Origin: Halalkalibacterium halodurans
Lineage (GTDB): Bacteria > Bacillota > Bacilli > Bacillales > Bacillaceae_D
DNA length: 11,394 bases
Assembly (NCBI RefSeq): GCF_004376175.1
Contig: NZ_SNUY01000063.1
Coordinates: forward strand, 1-11,394
Reading direction: 5' to 3'
Position numbers and translations under genes: made by a program. Every line of letters begins with the position of its first letter. Position 1 is the stretch's first letter. Below, piece by piece: positions 1 through 11,394 of this stretch. The notes under the pieces were generated by a model. The model was not told the DNA's origin. It did no database searches and worked only from the letters and a program-made list of their open reading frames with translations.

Positions 1-160
1 CGCCCTTGATTGACCTCTGAATAAACCATTGGTGTGTTTGTCAAGAGCGATAGCGTGGCATTTCCACCTAATAAATGGTAGGTAGTATGAACCGTGCTAG
101 TTTTTCATAGAACTTTTGGCACTACCTCTTGTGTATTTCACTGGAATACACTGTAATATG

Positions 161-301
161 TCAATTTCCACTACGCCCTAACTCTTGAGTCGTAAAGTCG
201 TCACTTGAGGATGAAGAAGTTTGGCTAATATACCCTTGGTTTAAAATAATCATTCCAAGAGCCATACTAGCTACAAGAAACTTTAACATTGTTTTTTTCA
301 T
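161..301 (-). CDS. Phr-like secreted signalling-peptide precursor (46 aa); absent from the supplied ORF track
   Basis: Manual minus-strand translation gives MKKTMLKFLVASMALGMIILNQGYISQTSSSSSDDFTTQELGRSGN. The ATG (301-299) overlaps the TGA of the upstream TPR ORF (ATGA). A strong SD, AAGAGGAGG (complement of 312-320), lies 10 nt upstream. The product has a basic N-terminus, a hydrophobic signal core and a polar Ser-rich pro-region. The C-terminal GRSGN has Arg at position 2, as in many known Phr pentapeptides. The stop is at 163-161. Confidence 0.6.
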   Translation of the reverse strand: MKKTMLKFLVASMALGMIILNQGYISQTSSSSSDDFTTQELGRSGN

Positions 302-888
302 ATTCTCTCAGCCTCCTCTTGTAATGAAGAAGTATATTCTTTCGCTTTTAAAGCCTCGACTAAATATTTCGTTGCCAGTTCATACATTTCCTTCTTTTTG
401 AAATGACGCCCAGCAATTGCACTTAAATCTGAAACATCGTGCCACAATTTTTTCTTTTTTAATTTTTCCAATTCATCATCAAGAGAGGATTCGTTTGGCT
501 CTAGGTAAATGGATTGAATGATGGATATCTTTGTCTGATACGTCTGTTCATTTATTTCCTCAGCCAATTTTTTTGACTCATTGAGCCACTCCCTACCTTC
601 TTCTATCAAATCCATTCTGAACAATACTCTCGCCAACATGTACTTAATTGCTAAATATGTGTCCTTTTTAATGTCTTTTGGATAGTCTATATCAAGGGTT
701 GTCTCAAGCGAATTCCTAGCTGTTTGAAGGTTGTCTAAATATTCGTTATAAACTCCTAAATTAAAGTATCCTATGACTTTCAGAAACGGAATGTCGTTCG
801 AGGACGCTATCTCTATTGCCTCTTTACATAGATTAATAGCATTATTGTGCTGATTGAGACCGAGTTGATGATGCCCGAAAACATGCAA
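298..888 (-). pseudogene. Rap-family (RNPP) TPR quorum-sensing receptor/aspartate phosphatase, C-terminal half only (N-terminally truncated remnant)
   Basis: The 196-aa ORF is built of TPR-like helix pairs (AINLCKEAIEIA, YFNLGVYNEYLDNLQTARNSLETTL, YLAIKYMLARVLFRMDLIEEGREWLNESKKLAEE). Its tail is Rap-like (LEKLKKKKLWHDVSDLSAIAGRHFKKKEMYELATKYLVEALKAKE). A phr-like ORF overlaps its stop. Rap proteins are about 375 aa, so roughly 180 N-terminal residues (3-helix bundle plus first TPRs) are missing. No ATG or SD lies upstream in frame; the frame stays open to about 1002 but reads as non-TPR sequence. Confidence 0.6.
724..752 (+). promoter_or_regulatory. Candidate sigma-A-type promoter facing the 930-3368 cassette (TTGAAG-N17-TATAAA)
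   Basis: The -35 TTGAAG is at 724-729, the spacer is 17 nt, and the -10 TATAAA is at 747-752. The motif lies antisense inside the rap remnant, about 180 nt upstream of the 930 ATG. This is AT-rich DNA, so a chance match is quite possible. Confidence 0.2.
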
Positions 889-929
889 AGGATGTAGTCG
901 AAGGGCTGTATGAACTTGATCATGAAGGC

Positions 930-2273
930 ATGACCTTGATGCGAGAGCTTCAAAGAGAAATGAACGAACTAAAAGCCATATTAAAGCAAGTAATCGAGTG
1001 GACTACTAACGGAGGCCCTCTTCTAAACGGTGTTAATATTCAGGATGTGAGATCATACTTTCAAGATATGACCCTACATACGAAAGCATCGGAAATTGAT
1101 TTGGAGACTTTGGATGCTCATGCGCTTCGAGACATTCTTCAAGATGGAGCCCTTATCAAACCGATTGTACAAAAATTTGCTGCCGGAGAAGCTTTAACGT
1201 ATACAGAAAGGGAACTTCTCTATTTCTTCTTACAGCACATTTTCCTCGGTGCTGAAAAGCGAAAAGAAATTGAAAGCATTGCCGAGATGATCAGTGAAGA
1301 TCGGATCGATGAATTAGTTTATCGCCTCAATCATACCGTACTTACATCTGAAACTACCCTTGATGATGAAATCGCCCTTATACAGGCTTATTTGTTTAGT
1401 GGGAATCGTCAATTGGAAAAGGAGCTTTCTTATGAAGAAATGATCTCAATCTATAAATTAAGGTCATATTTAGCATTGATTGAGAATTATCAAGTCGCTC
1501 TTGAAGAGAATAAACGCCTATATGAAAATACGGATGTTTGGGCACGGGTAGAGTGGATTTCTTATGAGTACGTCCCAGGCGCTCGAAAACAAACCTATGC
1601 GTTTGAAACAGCCCTTCAAACAACGCCTGTAGTAAGTGTTTATAGTTTGAAGACACGAGAGGAATTTTTAGCAAGAGAAGGCCATCAATTAGACGGGAAG
1701 GCAGATGTTTCAAGGGTGACTTATCTGGTAGGGCAGAATATTTTGTTACAGTCAAATGAAGATGAGGCGAACGAGTTGCTTAAAAAATATAATGATTATA
1801 CGGAAAATTTTATAAAGAAAGAAGTAGTTAACGTTCAATCCCCTATAAAGAGTGGAAGTGCACTCGGACAAGTAGTTGGCTTAGTTAATCTAGGGAGAAA
1901 ATACAACGATGGCAAAGAAGATCTAGGAAGAAGACTCACGTCTGCTAAGACAAAGGGGATAGCCGGAGAGCTTAAAGCGAACCTTCTTATATCGGAACGC
2001 CCAAAGTGGTATGAAAATCGAGCAGGAGCTGAGATTTACCCTAGTGTTGCTACTCATGATATTGTGGGTCGGTGGAGAGAAGCGCACAGTATTAATCCCG
2101 ATATACCTTATCCTGAACAAGCGATAATTCAACAAGACTGGTATGAAATTAGCGAATTTCTTGCAAATCACGTCGATGACTTTGACAAAATTAATCCAGA
2201 ATTATACGTATATATCTTTGATGAGTCAAAGAGAAATGATCAAACAGTGGAAGAGATTGCAAATAGAAATTAG
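930..2273 (+). CDS. Hypothetical 447-aa protein, largely helical N-terminal two-thirds; possibly a 5'-truncated fragment of a larger (polymorphic-toxin-like) gene
   Basis: It is a long ORF with coherent low-GC codon usage. No convincing SD precedes ATG 930 (GAAGG ends 1 nt before it), and ATG 939 has only weak GAAGG at 10 nt. The frame is open upstream to 858 with no start codon. No signal peptide, TM segment or catalytic motif is recognisable. The C-terminal 43 aa are paralogous to the next gene's product. Confidence 0.6.
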   Translation: MTLMRELQREMNELKAILKQVIEWTTNGGPLLNGVNIQDVRSYFQDMTLHTKASEIDLETLDAHALRDILQDGALIKPIVQKFAAGEALTYTERELLYFFLQHIFLGAEKRKEIESIAEMISEDRIDELVYRLNHTVLTSETTLDDEIALIQAYLFSGNRQLEKELSYEEMISIYKLRSYLALIENYQVALEENKRLYENTDVWARVEWISYEYVPGARKQTYAFETALQTTPVVSVYSLKTREEFLAREGHQLDGKADVSRVTYLVGQNILLQSNEDEANELLKKYNDYTENFIKKEVVNVQSPIKSGSALGQVVGLVNLGRKYNDGKEDLGRRLTSAKTKGIAGELKANLLISERPKWYENRAGAEIYPSVATHDIVGRWREAHSINPDIPYPEQAIIQQDWYEISEFLANHVDDFDKINPELYVYIFDESKRNDQTVEEIANRN

Positions 2274-2291
2274 TCAGGCAGGTGGAGAACG

Positions 2292-2783
2292 ATGAAAGGA
2301 TCAACGAAAAAGCGACTAATCGTCATCATATTGGTCATCGCAGGAATCATTCTAGGGGTCTATTTGCATAACGAAAAGAAAAATGCGGATGAAGAGTTGA
2401 AGCTAGCTCAGTACAGGAATGAGGCAATTGCAAAAATGTTCTGGCTTGATGTTAAACATACAGGTAAAGACCCGAATGATGTTGAATTTTTTCCAAGCCA
2501 AGATACAGATCGAATAATGGAACGGTGGAATGCAGTCACAGAGCTATACCCAGAGGCCGGTTATCCAGACGAAGTGGTAGAGCGAGAAGATTGGTTCGAG
2601 GTGAGTCAAATTTTCCTGAAGATACCTTTTCATGAAATACAACAGGAAATGATTGAAGATACAGATGCTTTACCTGAGGGGGAGAGAGTACCTGAAAGTA
2701 GCCTGGAGGATTATATTTTTTATAGAAGTTTTAGTTTAGGACCAGTCTTAGTGGAGTTAGGGCTTGAAGAAGAGGATCATTAG
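2292..2783 (+). CDS. Small signal-anchored (N-in, C-out predicted) acidic protein, 163 aa, unknown function; candidate immunity/accessory protein
   Basis: SD AGGTGGAG (2280-2287) lies 4 nt before the ATG, and the gene starts 18 nt after the upstream stop. The N-terminus MKGSTKKR is followed by the hydrophobic stretch LIVIILVIAGIILGVYL, with no lipobox Cys. The remainder is acidic and shares a module with residues 367-409 of the upstream protein. Confidence 0.75.
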   Translation: MKGSTKKRLIVIILVIAGIILGVYLHNEKKNADEELKLAQYRNEAIAKMFWLDVKHTGKDPNDVEFFPSQDTDRIMERWNAVTELYPEAGYPDEVVEREDWFEVSQIFLKIPFHEIQQEMIEDTDALPEGERVPESSLEDYIFYRSFSLGPVLVELGLEEEDH

Positions 2784-2801
2784 TCATTGGGTGGTGGATC
2801 T

Positions 2802-3368
2802 ATGTCAAAGAAGTGGAAGATCATTTTAGGTCTAGTTGCTGTGTTGTTCGTCGGTGGTTATGTCATGACAAACATAATAAAGGATGAAGCACAGAAAATA
2901 GAAGAGGAAGTGAATAGAGTATACTCAGACTCTGTAACACTCATTCATATTGAAAAGATGGATCAGAACAAGGCTCTCGTCTTTTATGAGTGGGGTGGTA
3001 TGTGGGAGAGAGGGGGAAAACTTGCAGTTGCTCAATTAAAGAAGAACTTGCTAGGTTGGACTTTTGAGAGCAGCCTTTCAATAAGTGCTAGAGAAGAGAG
3101 ACGATCCTTAGCTTTTAATGAGTATGCTGTTATAGTTGGTCTGGCGCTCCATTCTATAGATTTTCATGAAATCAAAATTGAAACAGCAGATGGTGAGATA
3201 CATACAGCCACGATCATCGAAAATGAAGATAGCCGTGGACGCTATTGGTTCTATATAGCAAGCGAAGAAGAATCTGAAGAGATATTTAATGCGTCGGTTT
3301 ATATGATGACAAAAGATGGAGAAGTGATTGAAGAGATCGAGAAACCTGACAATGATCCGTTGTATTGA
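2802..3368 (+). CDS. Small signal-anchored protein, 188 aa (193 aa if TTG 2787 is used), unknown function
   Basis: ATG 2802 has SD GGTGG (2790-2794) at 7-nt spacing, so I prefer it to the TTG at 2787 used by the ORF track. The N-terminus MSKKWK is followed by IILGLVAVLFVGGYVM (a TM anchor). The rest is a beta-looking domain with an acidic tail. The gene is followed by a terminator. Confidence 0.75.
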   Translation: MSKKWKIILGLVAVLFVGGYVMTNIIKDEAQKIEEEVNRVYSDSVTLIHIEKMDQNKALVFYEWGGMWERGGKLAVAQLKKNLLGWTFESSLSISAREERRSLAFNEYAVIVGLALHSIDFHEIKIETADGEIHTATIIENEDSRGRYWFYIASEEESEEIFNASVYMMTKDGEVIEEIEKPDNDPLY

Positions 3369-3400
3369 AAGGTGTTTAGATACAATCAAGTAATTGTAAC

Positions 3401-3440
3401 AGCCCCCTTCGAAGCTCCTATTTGGCTTCTGAAGGGGGCT
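3401..3440. terminator. Bidirectional intrinsic-terminator-like hairpin between convergent genes
   Basis: AGCCCCCTTCGAAGC (3401-3415) is separated by the loop TCCTATTTG from GCTTCTGAAGGGGGCT (3425-3440). This gives a GC-rich stem of about 15 bp with one bulged base. It lies between stop 3368 (+) and stop 3449 (-). The flanking T-tracts are short on both strands. Confidence 0.7.
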
Positions 3441-3448
3441 TTAGCGAT

Positions 3449-4669
3449 TTATGAACTTTGTTGTTCGACTAGGGTTAATGTGGTCGTTTCCTTTTTCCCT
3501 TCGCGGTAGTAGGTGACTTCCACTTCGTCCCCAATGTTCAATTCGGTATATAAAAATTTCCGTAATTCGTGGCCGTCGTTAATGTCTTCACCGTTGAGCT
3601 CGACGATGACATCGTACTGCCGCAATCCGGCTGTTTCGGCAGGTGACATCGGTACCACGTCGGTGATCACGACGCCGCCCTTCACATCTTCAGGGAGTTT
3701 AAGCGTCTCTTCCCAATGGAAGCTCGGAATCTCACTTAGTGAACGGAAGGCGACACCCATCTGTGGACGCTGCACCTCACCGTAAAACTCCAAATCTTCG
3801 ATGACTGGAATCGCGAGGTTCGATGGAATGGCAAAGCCAATGCCTTCAACAGCACTTTGCGCAATTTTCATTGAGTTAATCCCAATCACTTGACCTTGGA
3901 TGTTCACGAGTGCGCCGCCGCTGTTCCCAGGGTTGATCGCTGCATCCGTTTGCAGCACCTCGGCCTGCCAGTCGATTTGTCCGTTGCCTGTTAAGTCGAT
4001 TGGAATGCTTCGCTCGGTCGCACTGATGATTCCGAGAGTGACAGAGCTTGAGAAGCGTAACCCCAGCGGATTTCCGATCGCGATCGCCGGCTCACCTGGG
4101 CTGAGAAGGTCGGAGTTCCCGAATTCAGCAACGGTTTCTACGTCAGACCCGTCAATTTCGAGAACCGCCAAATCCGTGAAAACGTCTGATCCTAGCACTT
4201 CAGCTGGGAGGCGGGAGCCGTCGGTTAACACGACCTCGACTTGATTAGCACCGGAAATAACGTGCTCATTCGTGACGATAAACGCCCGATCGCCTTCTTT
4301 TTTGTAAATGACTCCAGATCCTGTCCCTTCCTCTTCCTCTGAGGAGGAGAACATGCTGCCATTTGTCATGCTAACGATCCCAACGACGGCGTCAGATACT
4401 TTCTCTACCGCTTGAGAGACATCTGAATTTACGGCATAATTGACCGTTTCGATGTCGTTAGGTGCTTCCGTCAGCTGACCTGTTTCTTCTGTGGGTGCTC
4501 CTGAGTCTATTTCATAAGGTAGCCAGCCAAGACCTGAGAGAGCCGGTACCGAAAAAAGAACGAGAAGTGCGCCTAAAATAGCACCGATAAATGCAGAAAT
4601 GCCAATTCCTCGTCTTGCGCCTTTTTGCTTTTCATTTCGATTAGATACGTGTTCATCATAGTACCCCAT
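3449..4669 (-). CDS. htrC: HtrA/DegP-family membrane-anchored serine protease with C-terminal PDZ domain (YyxA/HtrC position)
   Basis: Catalytic triad contexts are present: TNEHVI (His), DLAVLEI (Asp) and GNSGGALVN (Ser). The N-terminal TM is ISAFIGAILGALLVLFSV. The PDZ-like segment is GGVVITDVVPMSPAETAGLRQYDVIVELNGEDI. SD AAAGGTGGG lies upstream of the ATG. The gene sits directly downstream of yycJ, as in the Bacillus subtilis wal cluster; the symbol is assigned by synteny. Confidence 0.9.
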   Translation of the reverse strand: MGYYDEHVSNRNEKQKGARRGIGISAFIGAILGALLVLFSVPALSGLGWLPYEIDSGAPTEETGQLTEAPNDIETVNYAVNSDVSQAVEKVSDAVVGIVSMTNGSMFSSSEEEEGTGSGVIYKKEGDRAFIVTNEHVISGANQVEVVLTDGSRLPAEVLGSDVFTDLAVLEIDGSDVETVAEFGNSDLLSPGEPAIAIGNPLGLRFSSSVTLGIISATERSIPIDLTGNGQIDWQAEVLQTDAAINPGNSGGALVNIQGQVIGINSMKIAQSAVEGIGFAIPSNLAIPVIEDLEFYGEVQRPQMGVAFRSLSEIPSFHWEETLKLPEDVKGGVVITDVVPMSPAETAGLRQYDVIVELNGEDINDGHELRKFLYTELNIGDEVEVTYYREGKKETTTLTLVEQQSS

Positions 4670-4771
4670 ATGATATCACCCACCTTTATTATGAATGGAA
4701 ATAGTCCATTTATCCTTATTATATAAGGCTTTTTTCATTACGCTAGCCGACTAGGCCTATTTGCACAATTT

Positions 4772-4799
4772 TTTATACTTCTAATAGAATTGCCAACAA
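4772..4799 (-). promoter_or_regulatory. Candidate sigma-A promoter for the htrA-like gene (TTGTTG-N16-TATAAA on the minus strand)
   Basis: On the minus strand, -35 TTGTTG is the complement of 4794-4799 and -10 TATAAA is the complement of 4772-4777. The motif is downstream of the yycJ terminator and about 100 nt upstream of ATG 4669. The -35 is weak and the spacing suboptimal. Confidence 0.25.
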
Positions 4800-4885
4800 C
4801 ATTGACGCTTAATCATGGAAGTTGCACCTTTAACCGTGGGAAATTGACGCACGTTCCGATGACATGATGAAAGCAGTTCATCCAT

Positions 4886-4915
4886 AAAGAAAAAAGCCTC
4901 CGAAAAAAGGAGACT
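4886..4915 (-). terminator. Rho-independent terminator immediately after walJ/yycJ
   Basis: The minus strand reads AGTCTCC-TTTTTTC-GGAGGCT-TTTTTCTTT. This is a 7-bp stem (one G-U pair) with a 7-nt loop and a T-tract. It starts 2 nt after the TAA stop (4919-4917). Confidence 0.6.
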
Positions 4916-4916
4916 T

Positions 4917-5711
4917 TTACACGACTGCGAGGGGCGTCGGCTTATATGGATCGGTATCATAGAGGCGGAACCGCTCGCCAACTGCCAATCCTTGTTCCTG
5001 TAACACTTGCTCGACCGTGAGCCGAGCCAACTCTTTCATATTATTGTCCAAGCTTAGGTGAGCGAGATAGATTCGCTCGGTACGGTCGCCAATCACCTCG
5101 GCTAGCGCGTACGCCGCATCTTCATTGGAGACATGGCCCACATCGCTCAAAATCCGCCGTTTGACATTCCACGGATACCGCCCCATTCGGAGCATGTTTA
5201 AATCATGATTGGCCTCAAAAATGAGTGTATCGGCGTTTTCGATCGTCTTTTTAATCCGTTCACTTACATAGCCCATATCGGTCGCAAGGACAAGCTTTTT
5301 CCCATCGTGGTGAAAGACGTAAAACATCGGCTCAGCGGCATCGTGGGACACGCCGAACGATTCCACTTCTAAGTCGGCAAACGTCTTCACCTCACCGATT
5401 TCAAAATGAAACCGCTGGTCGGTTGTGAGCGTTCCGAGAGCCTTTTCCATCGCTTGCCATGTTTTGGCGTTAGCGTAAATGGGAAGGTTGTATTTCCGCG
5501 CGATGATGCCGACCCCTTTTATGTGATCGCTATGCTCATGGGTGACGAGAATTCCGTTGAGTTGACTCGGGTCGCAGTCAATTTTTTGGAACAGCTCGTC
5601 CATTTTTTTGCCGCTCAGCCCAGCGTCAACGAGCAGCTTTTGCTTATCTGTCTCCACGTAAAGAGCATTTCCCGTACTCCCGCTCGCTAAAACACTAAAT
5701 CGCAACGACAT
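4917..5711 (-). CDS. walJ: Metallo-beta-lactamase-fold hydrolase WalJ/YycJ
   Basis: The MBL signature [11 protein letters not shown] (HxHxDH) is present. At 264 aa it has the same length class as B. subtilis YycJ. SD AGAGGGAGAG is upstream. Its position after yycI matches the wal cluster. Confidence 0.92.
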
Positions 5712-5725
5712 CGTTTCTCTCCCTC

Positions 5726-6514
5726 TTACTGAATAATCTCACCGCCAATGGCGTTGATTAAGTACGTGTTCTGTTCGCCTTCTTGCTCATCGACGACGGT
5801 AATTTGCCACATGGGGGCAAACACTTGGATGGCTCCTTCTTGATGCACGAGGCTATGGTAGCCAAATTCGATCGCAGTTACGGCTTGGTTCATGCGCAAA
5901 AGCTGATCGGTATAAAGGCCTTCGATCGCCCGCAGGCTTGACATGAGGTCATGTTCCCGCCCGTGTTCCTCAAATTCAAGGATCGATTGCTCGTATCCGA
6001 TGATTTCTTGCTTCTCATTAAAATTTAATACGAGCTGCCCGTCTTCATAGGTGTACGTTGTAAACCCTTCATATTGTTGGTACAGCGGCAGTCTTCTATT
6101 GTCTTGGTCAAAGGCTCCGAACTGATAGGCCGATCCGTTCAGAACATACGTATTGACGAAGCTTCGCAGTTGCTGTCCCATGTTTTGGTCTGAGATCGGG
6201 TAGGGCTCATCCAGTGTAGCGACAAGCCGAGTCGGTTCAGGGAACGAAAGGTTGTCCGCTGGAAGAGGCACGACATCGACCATGGCTTGGGTCCATTCCT
6301 TCTTTTTTCCGACAAGATGTAGGCCGGATGGCTTGATCTCTGGTAGTTCCACATGAATGGAAATGTTGTTATCATTTAAAATTTCTTGAATGCTAGACTC
6401 GTTTAAAATCGCAATTTGATTGGCGCTTTTTTTATCGAGTAGCTGCCAAGTGAGGAAAAGGTTAATCAACAGGAAGATGATGATAAATATGGACTTCGTT
6501 CTACTCCAATCCAT
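5726..6514 (-). CDS. yycI: WalK-regulatory membrane-anchored protein YycI
   Basis: The N-terminus [26 protein letters not shown] is typical of YycI, with a single N-terminal TM and an extracytoplasmic domain. It is 262 aa long. Its ATG (6514-6512) overlaps the end of yycH by 14 nt. Confidence 0.88.
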
Positions 6515-7820
6515 CAGTCACTTCCTCCTTTGCTGTCAAATCAATCTTTTCCCACCGCCCGTCGTATTTTACAAACCAGAAAGGCTCGGCAATCACATAG
6601 GACGGTTTCACCATCTCGTAGCCGATTACCATTTTCTCAAGGGATCTAGGATTGAAATCTTCTCGCTCTTTTAAGGCGTCTAGCACTTCTTCGCCAGAAG
6701 GAAGCTCCTTTTTCCCTCCATCAATCGGCTGATTGTCAATGTCAAATAAAGGCCGGCGATATTCAGTCGGTTGATTCCCTGAGCCCCGTCGGACTAAATC
6801 TAGCTTCATTAAATCTTCGCCTTGAAAGCTCATCACCGGAAAGCCGTTCACCCGCAAACGATACGATACGAGATCCCGCGTTCCGAACGATTGCCAGTCG
6901 TCAAGGATGTACTGATCGGTCCATCCCCCGTGACTGTTAATAAAATCAAAGCTCGCCTGAATGATGTGCCTACCGCTTCGTTCCGTCGTTTCCGAGAAGA
7001 CGGGGTTCGTGTATTCCATAAAGTTGCCGCCGCCTTGTTCGGAAATGATGCGGTTCCCATCCGTGTAAGAATCGTCCTTCCCGTTTGATTGATGATACAT
7101 GCTGACCGCACTCGGATCGGTAAACAACGCTTGCGAAAACTGCATCGATGACAGCATCGTCGCCGTATACGAGAGTGTCGGCAAATGAGTGTGATCCACT
7201 GGGACGTATTGATTTTGCTGGTGCATTCCCATGACGACAGAAGTGGCCGCCATATAGTCATCCGTATCTTCCATGAGCGCTTCAAGATCCGAAGGGCTCA
7301 TATCCGTTTTGATCGTCACCACTTGTTCATCAAAAAGAGAAAGAAGCTGAGCCACGACCCCTTCATCAGGCTCCACGTAAAAGTAGATGCGATTGATCGA
7401 CGTGAGTGGCAGTAGAAAATCCTCGTCCTCCACATCAAACAAATGGACAAACAATTCGCTCGGAATCGAGGTAGGGTAAATGAGTTGAATGCCTGTCGGA
7501 GCACTGGCAAACGGGTGTTGTACTCTCATGTCATCGTCGATGAAGGTCGTCTCGCTCATTGTTGCTAAAAAGTCTTTATGTTGCTCAAGGTCCGGACGAA
7601 CGATGTAATACTCTTCATCTCCCCCATGGACGATCATCGATTCGGGAACGATCACTTCATTCATGGAGCGCTCTTCTTCAAGACGGATCAATTCCTCATA
7701 GTTGTTTTCATTATCTAAGACCGCGTAGTCCAGTTGAAACGTCCACAGTTGCCAAGTGAGGACCCAGCTCATAATCACAAGTCCAGTGAGGAGGACGGTT
7801 TTGATGTTTTCATAGTTCAC
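6501..7820 (-). CDS. yycH: WalK-regulatory membrane-anchored protein YycH
   Basis: The GTG start overlaps the walK stop (GTGA at 7820-7817). The N-terminal anchor is IKTVLLTGLVIMSWVLTWQLWTFQ, followed by a large extracytoplasmic domain. It is 439 aa long and sits between walK and yycI. Confidence 0.88.
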   Translation of the reverse strand: MNYENIKTVLLTGLVIMSWVLTWQLWTFQLDYAVLDNENNYEELIRLEEERSMNEVIVPESMIVHGGDEEYYIVRPDLEQHKDFLATMSETTFIDDDMRVQHPFASAPTGIQLIYPTSIPSELFVHLFDVEDEDFLLPLTSINRIYFYVEPDEGVVAQLLSLFDEQVVTIKTDMSPSDLEALMEDTDDYMAATSVVMGMHQQNQYVPVDHTHLPTLSYTATMLSSMQFSQALFTDPSAVSMYHQSNGKDDSYTDGNRIISEQGGGNFMEYTNPVFSETTERSGRHIIQASFDFINSHGGWTDQYILDDWQSFGTRDLVSYRLRVNGFPVMSFQGEDLMKLDLVRRGSGNQPTEYRRPLFDIDNQPIDGGKKELPSGEEVLDALKEREDFNPRSLEKMVIGYEMVKPSYVIAEPFWFVKYDGRWEKIDLTAKEEVTDGLE

Positions 7821-9640
7821 GCTTCTTCCCCCTTGAACGTGGAATAAGGCAACGTAAAGTAGATCGTCGTTCCAACCTTGTACTTGCTCTCAACCCAAAT
7901 TTCCCCTCCGTGGGCATGAACAAGCTCTTTTGCAATCGCAAGCCCTAGCCCTGTGCCACCAACGCTCCGGGCCCGCGCCTTGTCTACGCGATAAAACCGG
8001 TCAAAGATTTTCGTTTGGCTTTCTTTCGGAATCCCCATTCCTTGATCGGAAATGCTGACGCGTACATTGTGGCCTTGATGCAGCAAGGTGATCGCCACGT
8101 CGCCTCCTTCTGGGGAATATTTCATCGCGTTCGACAAAATGTTGTCGATGACTTGTGTGAGCTTGTCCTGATCGATTTCCACAAAGGTGGCGTGCTTCGT
8201 AATTTTGCGAATGAAATGAATGTCTTTCTCCTTGGCGATGATTTCATGACGATCAATCATGTCATGCAAATACGGTCCAAGGTCCACCCATGAGAGGTTC
8301 AGCTTGTAATCATGGGTATCAATTTTTGAAAGCTGCAATAAATCATTGACGAGACGAATCATGCGCTCTGTCTCATTTTGCGTTACATGTAGGAAGCGGG
8401 GCGCTAGGTTTGGATCGTTCATCGCGCCATCATCTAACGCTTCTAAATAGCTTTTCATCGTCGTCAGCGGTGTTCGCAGCTCATGAGACACATTGGCGAC
8501 AAACTCTCGTCGCTCTTGCTCGATTTTTTCCCGTTCTGTTACATCATGAAGCACCGTAATTAAGCCATTTACAGGTCCTTCATCCTCTTGAATAACGGAG
8601 AAGCTCGCTTGGATTAAATAATCTTCCTCGGTGCTAAAATCAAGCAGGACGCTATCGTTGTAATCATATAATTCATCGACTGCAAACGTTTCACTAATGT
8701 TTAACAGTTCAGGCAAAAGGGTTCCCTGTACCTCTTCATAGCTCACGCCGAGCATTTCCTCGGCCCGCTTGTTCATTAAAATAATTTTCCCATACTTATC
8801 GGACGCAATTACTCCATCTGTCATATGTGTCAGGACAGATCGGAGCTTCTTCTGTTCCTGGTCCCTTGTAGAAAGGGCGTCCTTCAGCTTCATCGTCAAG
8901 TCGTTAAACGACATAGCGAGCTGACCGATTTCATCGGTGCTGTGGACGTTTACCTTTCGAGAGAAGTCCCCATACCCCATGCGCAACGCCTGCTTACGCA
9001 TGTCTAAAATCGGACCAGTAATCGTCCGTGAAAGGAGGATCATTAATAGGGCGGTAATGCTGGCGGCAATGAGCGTCCCACTCGCTAAAATACTATTAAT
9101 ATCCTGCATCTGGTCATAAATGTCCTCAATAGAAGCTTCGATGTAAAGGGCACCGACAATCGCTTCTTCATCACGAATCGGTACAGCCAAGACGCGAATG
9201 CGATTTCCGGTTTGCGGATCGCGGTAGATCGAGCCAGGGCCGTCACGATTGCCGATTAACGCCCGTCGTACCGGGATTTCAGAGCTCAGCTGCCCGATAA
9301 TGTTTTGATTTGATAAATTGGACGTACCGATGACGACACGATTGGCGTCGATCACCTGCACCTCTGAGTTTTCAATGGAAAAGAGATCCCGCAGCAAGCT
9401 GTTCACTTCCGCTGTCAATTCTGCACGGTCCTCCCATTGCGCTGTTAACGGTTCGACTAAGCTATAGGCTAAAAGGTCCGCTCGCTCATCAAGCATGTTA
9501 AAATGGTTTTCTACGAGCTGATCCTCTAGCTGACGCGTAAAATACACGCCCATGATTTGCATGGCAATTAAAATGAGCAGCACGTAGATGATGATGAGCT
9601 TAAATTGAATCGATTTAAAAAAGCCGACCTTTCGCTCCAT
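7817..9640 (-). CDS. walK: Essential cell-wall-homeostasis sensor histidine kinase WalK (YycG)
   Basis: It has two TM segments flanking an extracytoplasmic domain. It also has HAMP (ITGPILDMRKQALRMGYGDFSRKV...IGQLAMSFNDLTMKL) and PAS (MTDGVIASDKYGKIILMNKRAEEMLG) regions. The kinase boxes are H-box VSHELRTPLT, N-box DNILSNAMKYSP, G1 DQGMGI and G2 GGTGLGLAI. It is 607 aa long, and its ATG overlaps the walR stop (TAATG). Confidence 0.97.
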   Translation of the reverse strand: MERKVGFFKSIQFKLIIIYVLLILIAMQIMGVYFTRQLEDQLVENHFNMLDERADLLAYSLVEPLTAQWEDRAELTAEVNSLLRDLFSIENSEVQVIDANRVVIGTSNLSNQNIIGQLSSEIPVRRALIGNRDGPGSIYRDPQTGNRIRVLAVPIRDEEAIVGALYIEASIEDIYDQMQDINSILASGTLIAASITALLMILLSRTITGPILDMRKQALRMGYGDFSRKVNVHSTDEIGQLAMSFNDLTMKLKDALSTRDQEQKKLRSVLTHMTDGVIASDKYGKIILMNKRAEEMLGVSYEEVQGTLLPELLNISETFAVDELYDYNDSVLLDFSTEEDYLIQASFSVIQEDEGPVNGLITVLHDVTEREKIEQERREFVANVSHELRTPLTTMKSYLEALDDGAMNDPNLAPRFLHVTQNETERMIRLVNDLLQLSKIDTHDYKLNLSWVDLGPYLHDMIDRHEIIAKEKDIHFIRKITKHATFVEIDQDKLTQVIDNILSNAMKYSPEGGDVAITLLHQGHNVRVSISDQGMGIPKESQTKIFDRFYRVDKARARSVGGTGLGLAIAKELVHAHGGEIWVESKYKVGTTIYFTLPYSTFKGEEA

Positions 9641-10350
9641 TAAGCATTCTCCTGCTCAGGGTGACGCAAATAGTACCCGACTCCACGGCGTGTAATAATC
9701 CACGTTGGATAGCTAGGATTGTCCTCTACTTTCTCTCTGAGGCGACGAACGGTGACATCGACTGTGCGGACATCTCCGAAGTAATCATAGCCCCATACAG
9801 CCTGCAGCAGGTGCTCACGGGTCATCACTTGGCCTAGATGCTTGGCTAAGTAATGTATAAGCTCAAATTCCCGATGAGTGAGTTCGATGGATTCTCCGCG
9901 TTTTTTCACGAGATAGGCCTCTGGGTGGATCGATAAATCTCCGACTGAGATTTCCTTATACGAGAGTTGATCGTCGCCAGATGTTTGGTGACGACGCAAA
10001 TTCGCCTTCACTCTCGCTAATAGCTCTCGGGTACTAAATGGCTTTGTCACGTAGTCATCGGCCCCTAATTCAAGGCCTAACACTTTATCGATTTCCGAGT
10101 CTTTTGCGGTCAGCATGATGATCGGCATCTCAAATTGCTTACGAACCTCTCGGCACACTTCCATACCGTCTTTATTCGGTAGCATGATATCTAGCAAAAT
10201 TAAATCCGGCTTTTCCTGATTCACCTGTTCCACAGCTTCAGCTCCATCATAGGCACATATGACGGTAAACCCTTCTTTTTCTAAATTGAATTTCAGTATA
10301 TCTGCAATTGGCTTTTCGTCGTCAACAACTAGAATTTTTTTATTTTCCAT
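9640..10350 (-). CDS. walR: OmpR-family response regulator WalR (YycF)
   Basis: The receiver domain ([15 protein letters not shown]...[24 protein letters not shown]...[45 protein letters not shown]) closely resembles my recollection of B. subtilis WalR. A winged-helix output domain is present ([23 protein letters not shown]...[15 protein letters not shown]). SD GGAG lies upstream. Confidence 0.97.
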
Positions 10351-10389
10351 TGTTCATCCGCTCCGTTTCCACAAGCTCTCTATTTTAGT

Positions 10390-10398
10390 ATTGTAACA
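10390..10398 (-). promoter_or_regulatory. Candidate extended -10 promoter element for walRK (TGTTACAAT on the minus strand)
   Basis: The minus strand reads TG-T-TACAAT (complement of 10398-10390), about 40 nt upstream of the walR ATG. No good -35 hexamer sits at 16-18 nt, which is tolerated by TG-extended promoters. The call rests on motif only. Confidence 0.3.
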
Positions 10399-10694
10399 TA
10401 TGCTCCCTTAAATCGCGGCAAGAACCCCTGCCACTTTTTGTCTAACCTCTAAACTATAGTCATTCGCGATCGGTCAGCCGAACCCCTTTGGTAAAGCGAG
10501 GGGCGTTGTAGAAAATGTTGTTGCTCCCCGCGTGTAAAAAGCCCCTTTTCTGAGTAAAGGAGCGGTGTCTGTCGAAGTTAAATCTATCTTAAGAATAATG
10601 GAAAACGCACGGTACGTCCAATGAGAAGAGCCAATTCATCATGATGGAGGGTTCTTAGTCAAATGTTGGGGTGGCATAGGAGGGCGAGCCCCTC

Positions 10695-11394
10695 TTATCC
10701 TACCCCGAATGTTTGATGTTTGAATGGATGATGCATGAGAATACGGCTTCGCAAGCGATCATAACGCCGAAAACCAAAGGCATTTCTCTTAATCACCTTC
10801 GTTTGATTATTCAGTCCTTCAATAAAACCATTGTTTAAGCCAAACGCGAAGCTATTCAAGATCTCGGTCTGTTGACCCTTCTCTTGAAGATATCGTTTAA
10901 GCGTATCGGCTTTACGATCCGGTAAGATATCCAGTGGCTTCCGTGTATCTGCATCCGCAATGATCACTTGATATTTCCCCGCTTTCGTATCCCCTTTGTA
11001 ATCATCAATCGCAATCCGAGGAGGAAGGTGATCCACCTTCTTCACGAGGGGGGCCGCCAATTGATCAAACCGGCGCATGGCAGTTGTCACGGACGTTTGG
11101 AATTGATTCGCTGTGTCCGTAAAGTTCTTCCCTTGAATGAGCCGTAAGCGAAACGCTTGATTCCATTCCACTGTCTGACGCTGATATCGCTCTACAAAAC
11201 AGGCTTTCTCCGCAAACCGCTTCCCGCATCTGCACGCGTACCGGCGCTTTCGATAGAATAGATACACCCACCGTTCAAAGAGCTTGAGATGTTGAACTTT
11301 TTGGATGCGGTAATCATGGATTCTCTCGGTTCTCTCCCCGCAGGATGGGCAACGATGAGGCGTTCGCGGCATTTCTACATGGAGCGCGATAAAG
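10695..11394 (-). pseudogene. ISL3-family transposase remnant with an in-frame internal deletion; 5' end runs off the window
   Basis: An N-terminal zinc-finger pair is present (CPSCG...CRCG). IAIDDYKGD matches the ISL3 region around the first catalytic Asp. YLQEKGQQ then joins directly to the ISL3 C-terminal signature TEILNSF...NGFIEGLNNQTKVIKRNAFGFRRYDRLRSRIL. About 200 aa, including the second Asp and the Glu, are therefore missing (full length is usually about 400-440 aa). The frame is open from 11373 to the edge (..FIALHVE-MPRT), so the true start is probably outside the window. Confidence 0.85.

Follow-up and report, generated by a model that had tools for sequence, protein, structure and literature searches.

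Probable remnant of an LXG toxin operon retaining a pair of candidate immunity genes in Halalkalibacterium halodurans

Characterised LXG toxins are mostly enzymes acting in the cytoplasm (nucleases, NADase, deaminase); among the others known, TelC is directed at lipid II, and TspA, EsxX and TelE depolarise or permeabilise the membrane. We analysed a stretch of 11,394 nucleotides from Halalkalibacterium halodurans (contig NZ_SNUY01000063.1, positions 1 to 11,394; hereafter the window), in which three consecutive open reading frames (ORF1, ORF2 and ORF3; 930-3368, plus strand) probably represent the remnant of an operon for an LXG toxin of a secretion system of type VIIb (T7SSb). According to this explanation, to which we assign a probability of about 0.8 on the basis of sequence comparison, a deletion of about 2 kb beheaded the toxin gene and left in place a pair of candidate immunity genes whose products are predicted to face outward. 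The closest described system is that of TelC and TipC in Streptococcus intermedius, in which an LXG toxin with lipid II phosphatase activity is countered by an outward-facing immunity protein with a transmembrane (TM) anchor, and in which tipC paralogues form arrays (PMC6193138). The LXG domain has been identified as the minimum for export, and DUF5344/DUF5082 partners (Lap3/Lap4) as needed for secretion (PMC10801868).

The cassette shares with TelC-TipC the general layout, that is, an LXG-type T7SSb toxin followed by tandem small proteins with an N-terminal TM segment and a predicted extracytoplasmic domain. In contrast to that system, each unit comprises two different partners, one of which is homologous to the toxin tail. 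Membership in the TelC/Lipocone group was rejected, as neither profile searches nor Foldseek with a model of the toxin disclosed sequence or fold similarity to TelC (PDB 5UKH) or TipC. Intact loci of H. halodurans also recall the ywqH-ywqI-ywqJ-ywqK operons of Bacillus subtilis (PMC8321402), being composed of YwqH-like, DUF5344 and LXG toxin genes with further genes downstream in the antitoxin position. They differ in the C-terminal domain, unrelated to the deaminase and nuclease domains of the B. subtilis toxins, and in partners that are predicted to be exported and not cytoplasmic; in the window, moreover, the export half is deleted. The report on EsxX of Staphylococcus aureus (PMC12744356) describes a glycine-zipper toxin that depolarises membranes and is opposed by two distinct immunity families in two compartments. 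The similarity lies in more than one kind of candidate immunity protein per LXG toxin, and the difference in the lack of a hydrophobic segment in ORF1 and in the predicted outward orientation of both ORF2 and ORF3.

Orphan modules of contact-dependent inhibition (CDI), Rhs and LXG systems are the remaining point of comparison, and an orphan toxin/immunity module had been suggested in a preliminary description of this DNA. That suggestion stands as far as a 5'-truncated toxin that keeps a conserved stretch and is followed by intact immunity-type genes is concerned. It does not stand with regard to displacement, since the window copy occupies the primary position between rap and htrA and was beheaded in situ. 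Searches of the literature, which were not exhaustive, brought up nothing about LXG toxins of H. halodurans or about immunity proteins derived from a toxin. What appears to be new here is an unannotated toxin domain family whose partners are all predicted to be exported, with one of them seemingly derived from the toxin tail.

The truncated toxin gene and its intact counterparts

Counted from its first ATG, ORF1 (930-2273) comprises 447 aa, and it is followed by ORF2 (2292-2783, 163 aa) and ORF3 (2802-3368, 188 aa). The best start of ORF3 is ATG 2802, with GGTGGTGGA upstream, and TTG 2787 is not preferred because homologues begin with MSKKWK; with this start, 18 nt separate ORF1 from ORF2 and ORF2 from ORF3. 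The GC content of 930-3368 is 39.6%, compared to 47.7% in the adjoining walRK-yycHI-walJ-htrA block (3449-10350). ORF2 is preceded by the Shine-Dalgarno (SD) sequence GGTGGAG. In front of ATG 930 no usable SD is present, and the frame of ORF1, closed by TGA at 855-857, is open from 858 on, or 72 nt before the first ATG. Several of these features had been noticed in the preliminary description (three co-directional genes of low GC content, 18-nt gaps, an ORF1 without credible SD or start, good SDs before two anchored acidic proteins), and all of them were confirmed at the coordinates given there.

The whole open frame 858-2273 was used as a query against 5.8 billion proteins, and the matches are proteins of H. 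halodurans. Five full-length homologues (593-620 aa) and one partial entry of 524 aa are 71-86% identical to the query over 100% of its length. Where a source name is given, it reads either “ribonuclease YeeF family” or “T7SS effector LXG polymorphic toxin”, and all five, as well as the partial entry, carry the LXG domain PF04740, which spans aa 3-199 in full-length proteins (E 6e-56). An identical entry of 444 aa, starting at 939, is deposited as “hypothetical protein E2L07_16640” (TES50180.1). The 24 codons that precede the first ATG (DRVDDARKHAKDVVEGLYELDHEG) align to residues 147-170 of the full-length proteins, so that what had looked like a ragged 5' end is a leftover of the coding region. 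ORF1 thus corresponds to the 3' three-quarters of an H. halodurans LXG polymorphic-toxin gene. Homology in the window begins at aa 147, so that about 146 of 199 LXG residues are lost and approximately the last 53 persist as a residual tail (858-1016, plus strand); no Pfam LXG match was obtained for ORF1 itself, in contrast to its orthologues. The suspicion that a large ORF lacks its N-terminal part was accordingly borne out. Full-length homologues start elsewhere than at the first Met of ORF1, are LXG toxins and not members of a housekeeping family, and are preceded by YwqH-like and DUF5344 genes.

Two further proteins, P0010 and P0011, agree with ORF1 to about aa 50, beyond which their toxin tails are unrelated to it and consist, in one instance, of PT-TG plus LHH. 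As judged from these alignments, a shared N-terminus with switched tails is the pattern of polymorphic toxins, with a switch point as expected for LXG proteins. Within ORF1, amino acid identity is 96-99% in the conserved part compared to 58-79% in the variable part. Because the LXG domain and the partner genes are deleted, the window copy is best classified as an LXG-toxin remnant by descent and not as a functional LXG member.

A new intracellular role of ORF1, with translation beginning at an internal Met (930 or 939), could be imagined, given a frame intact over 447 codons and a weak GAAGG located 12 nt before ATG 939. It is, however, hardly credible in view of the lack of a promoter and of a proper SD, and of the 24 upstream codons, which are plainly leftover toxin sequence.

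The extent of the loss was determined by comparison with three other loci of the species, L001 (C-125-like, BH4018-BH4021), L004 (CP040441.1) and L005. In all of them, the minus strand carries rap (371 aa, RapH_N and TPR domains) with small phr-like genes, and the plus strand carries a YwqH-like gene, a DUF5344 gene (Lap3 family), the LXG toxin gene and one or two pairs of genes for proteins of ~163 and ~189 aa. The loci end with htrA, followed by the rest of the wal operon (htrA-walJ-yycIH-walKR). YwqH-like and DUF5344 genes upstream of the toxin were found in L001, L003, L004, L005, L006 and L009, and are deleted in the window.

The window is collinear with the intact loci on both sides, and ~1.98 kb are missing with respect to L001 and L004. 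Positions 270-776 align to the 3' part of rap, and the sequence from 857 onward aligns to the toxin gene from codon 147 onward. The junction (852-858) joins antisense rap to toxin codon 147 with a microhomology of only 2-5 nt, and therefore looks like the product of an illegitimate deletion and not of a site-specific event. The segment removed includes the N-terminal half of rap, the promoter region between the divergent genes, the genes of the two small helical partners and toxin codons 1-146. In the data available, the deletion is confined to the strain from which the window derives. ORF1 is therefore a toxin body stripped of its export domain and its targeting partners, and it would no longer be exportable because the LXG domain and the DUF5344/YwqH-like partners are lost.

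A seemingly second truncated toxin, P0008 (439 aa, L002 1-1334), proved to be an artefact of a contig end. The strain of L002 also bears a full-length paralogue elsewhere, in the second H. halodurans locus L003, whose toxin has the same N-terminal region, and the repeat formed with it probably broke the assembly of L002. This case, together with the finding of the exact ORF1 on one database contig only, raises the question whether the rap/LXG join is itself a chimera of assembly and the true locus is intact. Such an explanation is very unlikely, as the sequence remains collinear for ~850 nt on one side of the junction and for 10.5 kb on the other, no repeat that might mislead an assembler is present at the join, and the truncated ORF was annotated by both GenBank and RefSeq.

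Two small proteins, predicted to be exported, that accompany the toxin

ORF2 and ORF3 encode acidic proteins, each with one N-terminal hydrophobic segment (mean Kyte-Doolittle hydropathy 2.5 and 2.2, respectively) preceded by three to four K/R residues, without Cys, and with acidic remainders (isoelectric points 4.2 and 4.6). Hydropathy and the positive-inside rule predict an N-in/C-out topology for both. ORF2 combines the TM anchor with a copy of the C-terminal subdomain of the toxin, and ORF3 is always paired with an ORF2-type gene.

In a word-indexed search, both families were found in H. halodurans only, at 58-87% identity, and identity between individual copies (54-87%) indicates fast divergence. 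ORF2-type and ORF3-type genes always form adjacent pairs in this species: one pair in the window, in L002, in L004/L005 and in the short contig L006, two in L001 and at least 2.5 in L003. Profile searches extended the association of ORF2-like genes with the toxin to at least five genera. An ORF2-like gene directly follows a homologous toxin gene in Amphibacillus (E 2e-34), where two tandem pairs are made up with the help of ORF3-like genes (E 3e-17). It also comes directly after the toxin in Shouchella tritolerans and Salicibibacter, and in Shouchella rhizosphaerae a toxin fragment and the gene of a lipoprotein lie in between. For the matches in Shouchella and Salicibibacter, E is about 1e-18 to 3e-20. 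In Evansella, the toxin and the ORF2-like protein are three locus tags apart on the same 7.4-kb contig. The preliminary description had left linkage of the three genes to be checked, and the small genes were indeed found to accompany the toxin gene in further genomes, including those of other genera.

The second, or ORF3, position is occupied by unrelated lipoproteins in Shouchella and Salicibibacter; the Shouchella lipoprotein at this position was considered as an ORF3 homologue and rejected, as direct comparison showed no homology. In both genera, the toxin gene adjoins genes for EssA (E 4e-37), EssC and an EsaA-like protein, and these neighbours tie the toxin family to T7SSb.

True orphan fragments were observed in Shouchella (L008 10143-10457 and 11133-11447; L007 10492-10908). 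They comprise a 104-aa piece of the toxin C-terminus and ORF2-like genes that are truncated or devoid of the anchor. Such fragments are located among intact pairs and make up a putative immunity island with them.

In genomes, genes for immunity proteins are recognised by their tandem arrays, rapid divergence and strict linkage to a polymorphic toxin. Because ORF2-type and ORF3-type genes share all three features, we infer that they encode immunity proteins. ORF1 is probably offensively dead in the strain studied, and ORF2 and ORF3, both intact and each provided with an SD, would probably still guard against the same family of toxins released by kin strains. A decayed piece of a mobile element with no activity had been offered as an alternative in the preliminary description; the decay is probably real for the offensive role of ORF1.

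The relationship of ORF2 to the toxin is evident at several levels. Its ectodomain is homologous to the last ~110 residues of the toxin, which form a subdomain (1920-2270, plus strand) composed of a beta-hairpin and a small helical bundle with the motif RW..PxIPYP..DW. Within the window, aa 367-411 of ORF1 match aa 64-108 of ORF2 (BLASTP E 3e-8), and the same relation was found in L001 (E 1.5e-10). Profile-profile comparison (hhalign) of ORF2 and the toxin tail gave a probability of 97% (E 1.1e-10, 78 columns). When the toxin profile was run against 1.84 billion representatives, small TM-anchored proteins were recovered at whole-library E values from 4e-20 to 2e-6 (P0092, P0118, P0144, P0164, P0171 and P0175), and the ORF2 profile matched the toxin C-termini of four other loci.

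The same profile search disclosed a subfamily of ~340-aa proteins in which signal peptides or lipoboxes precede most of the toxin module (L009 12841-13875; P0083, P0084, P0091, P0108-P0112, P0119, P0127, P0139, P0140, P0160 and P0170). One of them is located 3 kb downstream of the Salicibibacter toxin. These paralogues retain N134, S140, E147, Y180, R381, W382 and W404, and they are devoid of the toxin-specific helix GEALxYxERELLYxYxQ (aa 84-105). Since they are exported by Sec or as lipoproteins, the toxin module has been used repeatedly outside the cytoplasm, and they may represent decoy immunity proteins or preserve an ancestral role in the envelope.

These paralogues also provide an argument for a different role of ORF2 and ORF3, as a toxin receptor, maturation factor or housekeeping wall function located in the envelope and merely co-located with the toxin. 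The domain common to ORF2, the toxin and the Sec-exported ~340-aa paralogues makes a shared envelope function possible, and toxin and immunity variants are not cleanly matched. However, tandem arrays right after the toxin, rapid divergence, restriction to toxin loci and retention after loss of the toxin are difficult to reconcile with this role, and we regard it as quite unlikely compared to immunity.

How ORF2 would neutralise the toxin can only be approached speculatively. It might mimic the C-terminal docking subdomain and thus either compete for the docking site of the toxin or cap the toxin itself, a proposal that we put forward tentatively and consider rather doubtful.

Toxin module, proposed site of action and exchange between loci

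The C-terminal toxin module extends over 1083-2270 (plus strand), with its variable part from about 1400, and belongs to an unannotated family. The toxin profile matched 178 cluster representatives at E ≤ 1e-3, 45 of them at E ≤ 1e-30. As a rule, their length is 470-610 aa and the module is located at the C-terminus. In 41 members that were scanned, LXG was present in 12 and WXG100 in two, and the others begin with ~110 helical residues without a domain match. Named members, all labelled “hypothetical” or “LXG domain-containing”, belong to Evansella, Alkalicoccobacillus, Salicibibacter and Amphibacillus. A profile scan of genome contigs, based on a narrower alignment, recovered only two Shouchella loci.

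The structure was modelled with AlphaFold2 (AF2) from 41 diverse sequences (predicted local distance difference test, pLDDT, 77.9; predicted template modelling score, pTM, 0.74). An earlier model from nine close homologues (pLDDT 58.7) was set aside, its Foldseek matches being meaningless. The model used comprises a helical region (aa 62-197), an antiparallel sheet (203-268) and a long helical hairpin (276-347), followed by the C-terminal beta-hairpin (351-370) and small helical bundle (373-445). A conserved polar cluster of the module includes E93, N134, S140, E147, Y180 and R381/W382. When the model was compared to PDB with Foldseek, none of the matches was credible, the best one having E 0.025 at a probability of 0.15, with only weak hints of NTF2/VirB8/TraM-like folds (probability ≤ 0.54). 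Scans of the ORF1-3 proteins with Pfam, NCBIfam and PADLOC returned noise only, and PDB sequence-profile searches with the toxin, ORF3 and ORF2 families returned nothing meaningful. In the preliminary description no known catalytic motif had been recognised, and none was found here either.

The name “ribonuclease YeeF family protein”, attached at the source to P0004 and P0007, would fit a nuclease acting in the cytoplasm, with ORF2 and ORF3 unrelated to its neutralisation. That name, however, follows the LXG region. No nuclease or other Pfam/NCBIfam domain was found in the C-terminal 390 aa, P0010 with real PT-TG and LHH nuclease domains shares the N-terminal part only, and the toxin gene is not followed by one for a small protein of the cytoplasm. 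This combination makes a cytoplasmic nuclease very unlikely. A glycine-zipper or pore-forming toxin of the TspA/EsxX/TelE type was examined and rejected as well: the maximum Kyte-Doolittle value of any 19-mer in ORF1 is 0.73, with none above 1.6, and conservation of the GxxxG-like run GSALGQVVGLVNLG (ORF1 aa 309-322) does not extend to other genera. Because of the lack of a hydrophobic segment and the unconserved run, such a pore is improbable.

As all partner proteins are predicted to be exported and Sec-exported paralogues exist, action of the toxin family on the wall or the outer side of the membrane is somewhat favoured, in a manner comparable to TelC with TipC. If the resemblance of ORF2 to the toxin is included, one may conceive of a new envelope-acting T7SS toxin fold whose immunity proteins (of the ORF2 type, and possibly the ~340-aa lipoproteins) are built from the toxin itself. 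Tethered copies of the tail would then occupy the target in the envelope or cap an incoming toxin. The odds are against so extended a scheme, which we mention as a possibility. The toxin family has been found so far in Halalkalibacterium, Shouchella, Evansella, Alkalicoccobacillus, Salicibibacter and Amphibacillus, and the status of ORF2 as a paralogue of its tail leads to a concrete and easily tested hypothesis in which both the mode of immunity and the target in the envelope would be new. Immunity by mimicry of the toxin, if true, would be a principle not described for T7SS toxins.

An operon for an extracytoplasmic function (ECF)-type sigma factor, a PadR protein and an FtsW-RodA-SpoVE protein was observed beside the toxin cassette in two loci, upstream in L003 (6512-8779) and downstream in Amphibacillus jilinensis (L010 12239-14494). 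The three proteins are 46%, 27% and 28% identical, respectively, between these loci. This neighbourhood could be chance synteny, or it could hint at peptidoglycan synthesis as a target.

In sliding-window comparison, the block 857-1400 (plus strand) is 97-100% identical at the nucleotide level to all full-length H. halodurans copies. Beyond it, similarity is mosaic: the variable part of the toxin is closest to L006 (79% aa, 81-89% nt), and ORF2 and ORF3 are closest to L004 and to pair 2 of L003 (80-87% aa; 82-97% nt compared to L004). This pattern, followed through window positions 1400-3400, indicates recombination between toxin and partner genes. Co-variation of toxin and immunity gave no clean result, the window being mosaic. 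The conserved block is a stretch of the kind that orphan modules retain and that homologous recombination could use as a substrate. In principle, recombination with a full-length paralogue (of the L003 type, present in another strain) could re-arm ORF1.

The same observations suggest an alternative, compatible with an operon remnant, in which the cassette is a silent “orphan” kept for toxin switching, that is, for recombining with a full-length LXG paralogue and swapping tip and immunity pair. It could build on the 540-bp conserved block, on L003, a second locus present in another strain, where the toxin is full-length and agrees in the N-terminal region, on the mosaic similarity as a trace of past recombination, and on P0010 and P0011, which share the N-terminal region and continue into other toxin domains. 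On the other hand, the cassette is found at the primary locus and not downstream of a full-length gene, and rap was destroyed as well, which looks accidental rather than programmed. Such a switching cassette is thus unlikely, though not to the degree of the nuclease or of a role other than immunity.

Several points weigh against the interpretation of the cassette as a beheaded T7SSb toxin operon with a surviving immunity pair. The evidence for the deletion comes from one assembly (a 25.4-kb contig of strain E2L07). ORF1 is uninterrupted by stop codons or frameshifts, so its decay is invisible, and a scan for promoter consensus sequences found none for ORF1-3 after the deletion. The link to core T7SSb genes comes from the Shouchella and Salicibibacter loci. 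Because the cassette is mosaic, its toxin and partners may not be cognate, and the target of the toxin module is a guess, as no catalytic motif or known fold was found. If the interpretation is nevertheless true, the window holds a natural “disarmed but immune” genotype and a model for decay of a toxin locus with immunity kept.

Neighbouring genes and minor features

To the left of the junction, the remnant of rap (298-867, minus strand) retains the C-terminal 189 codons, corresponding to aa 183-371 of 371. It is 79% identical to that part of the L001 protein (blastp) and matches TPR only, the N-terminal 182 codons, including the RapH_N domain, being absent. Downstream of the truncated rap and overlapping it, an intact phr-like gene (161-301, minus strand) encodes an exported peptide of 46 aa identical to that at L001 7748-7888. 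This gene represents the left border of the island, and positions 1-124 of the window gave no alignment to the region of the phr copies in L001 or L004.

Between the convergent ORF3 and htrA, the strong hairpin noted in the preliminary description was verified at 3401-3440. It is GC-rich, with a folding energy of -32.5 kcal/mol (z = -5.65 compared to shuffled sequences), and likely acts as a bidirectional terminator; it was missed by a terminator scan based on T-runs. A near-match to the sigma-A consensus (TTGACT-17 nt-TATAAT, 11/12) lies antisense at the 3' end of ORF1 (2229-2201, minus strand). It may be due to chance, and the region is poorer in promoter-like sites than shuffled sequences. 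Downstream of walR, an ORF of 225 aa (10695-11372, minus strand) encodes a transposase of the ISL3 family; its counterpart in L004 has 255 aa, and the copy in the window may be truncated.

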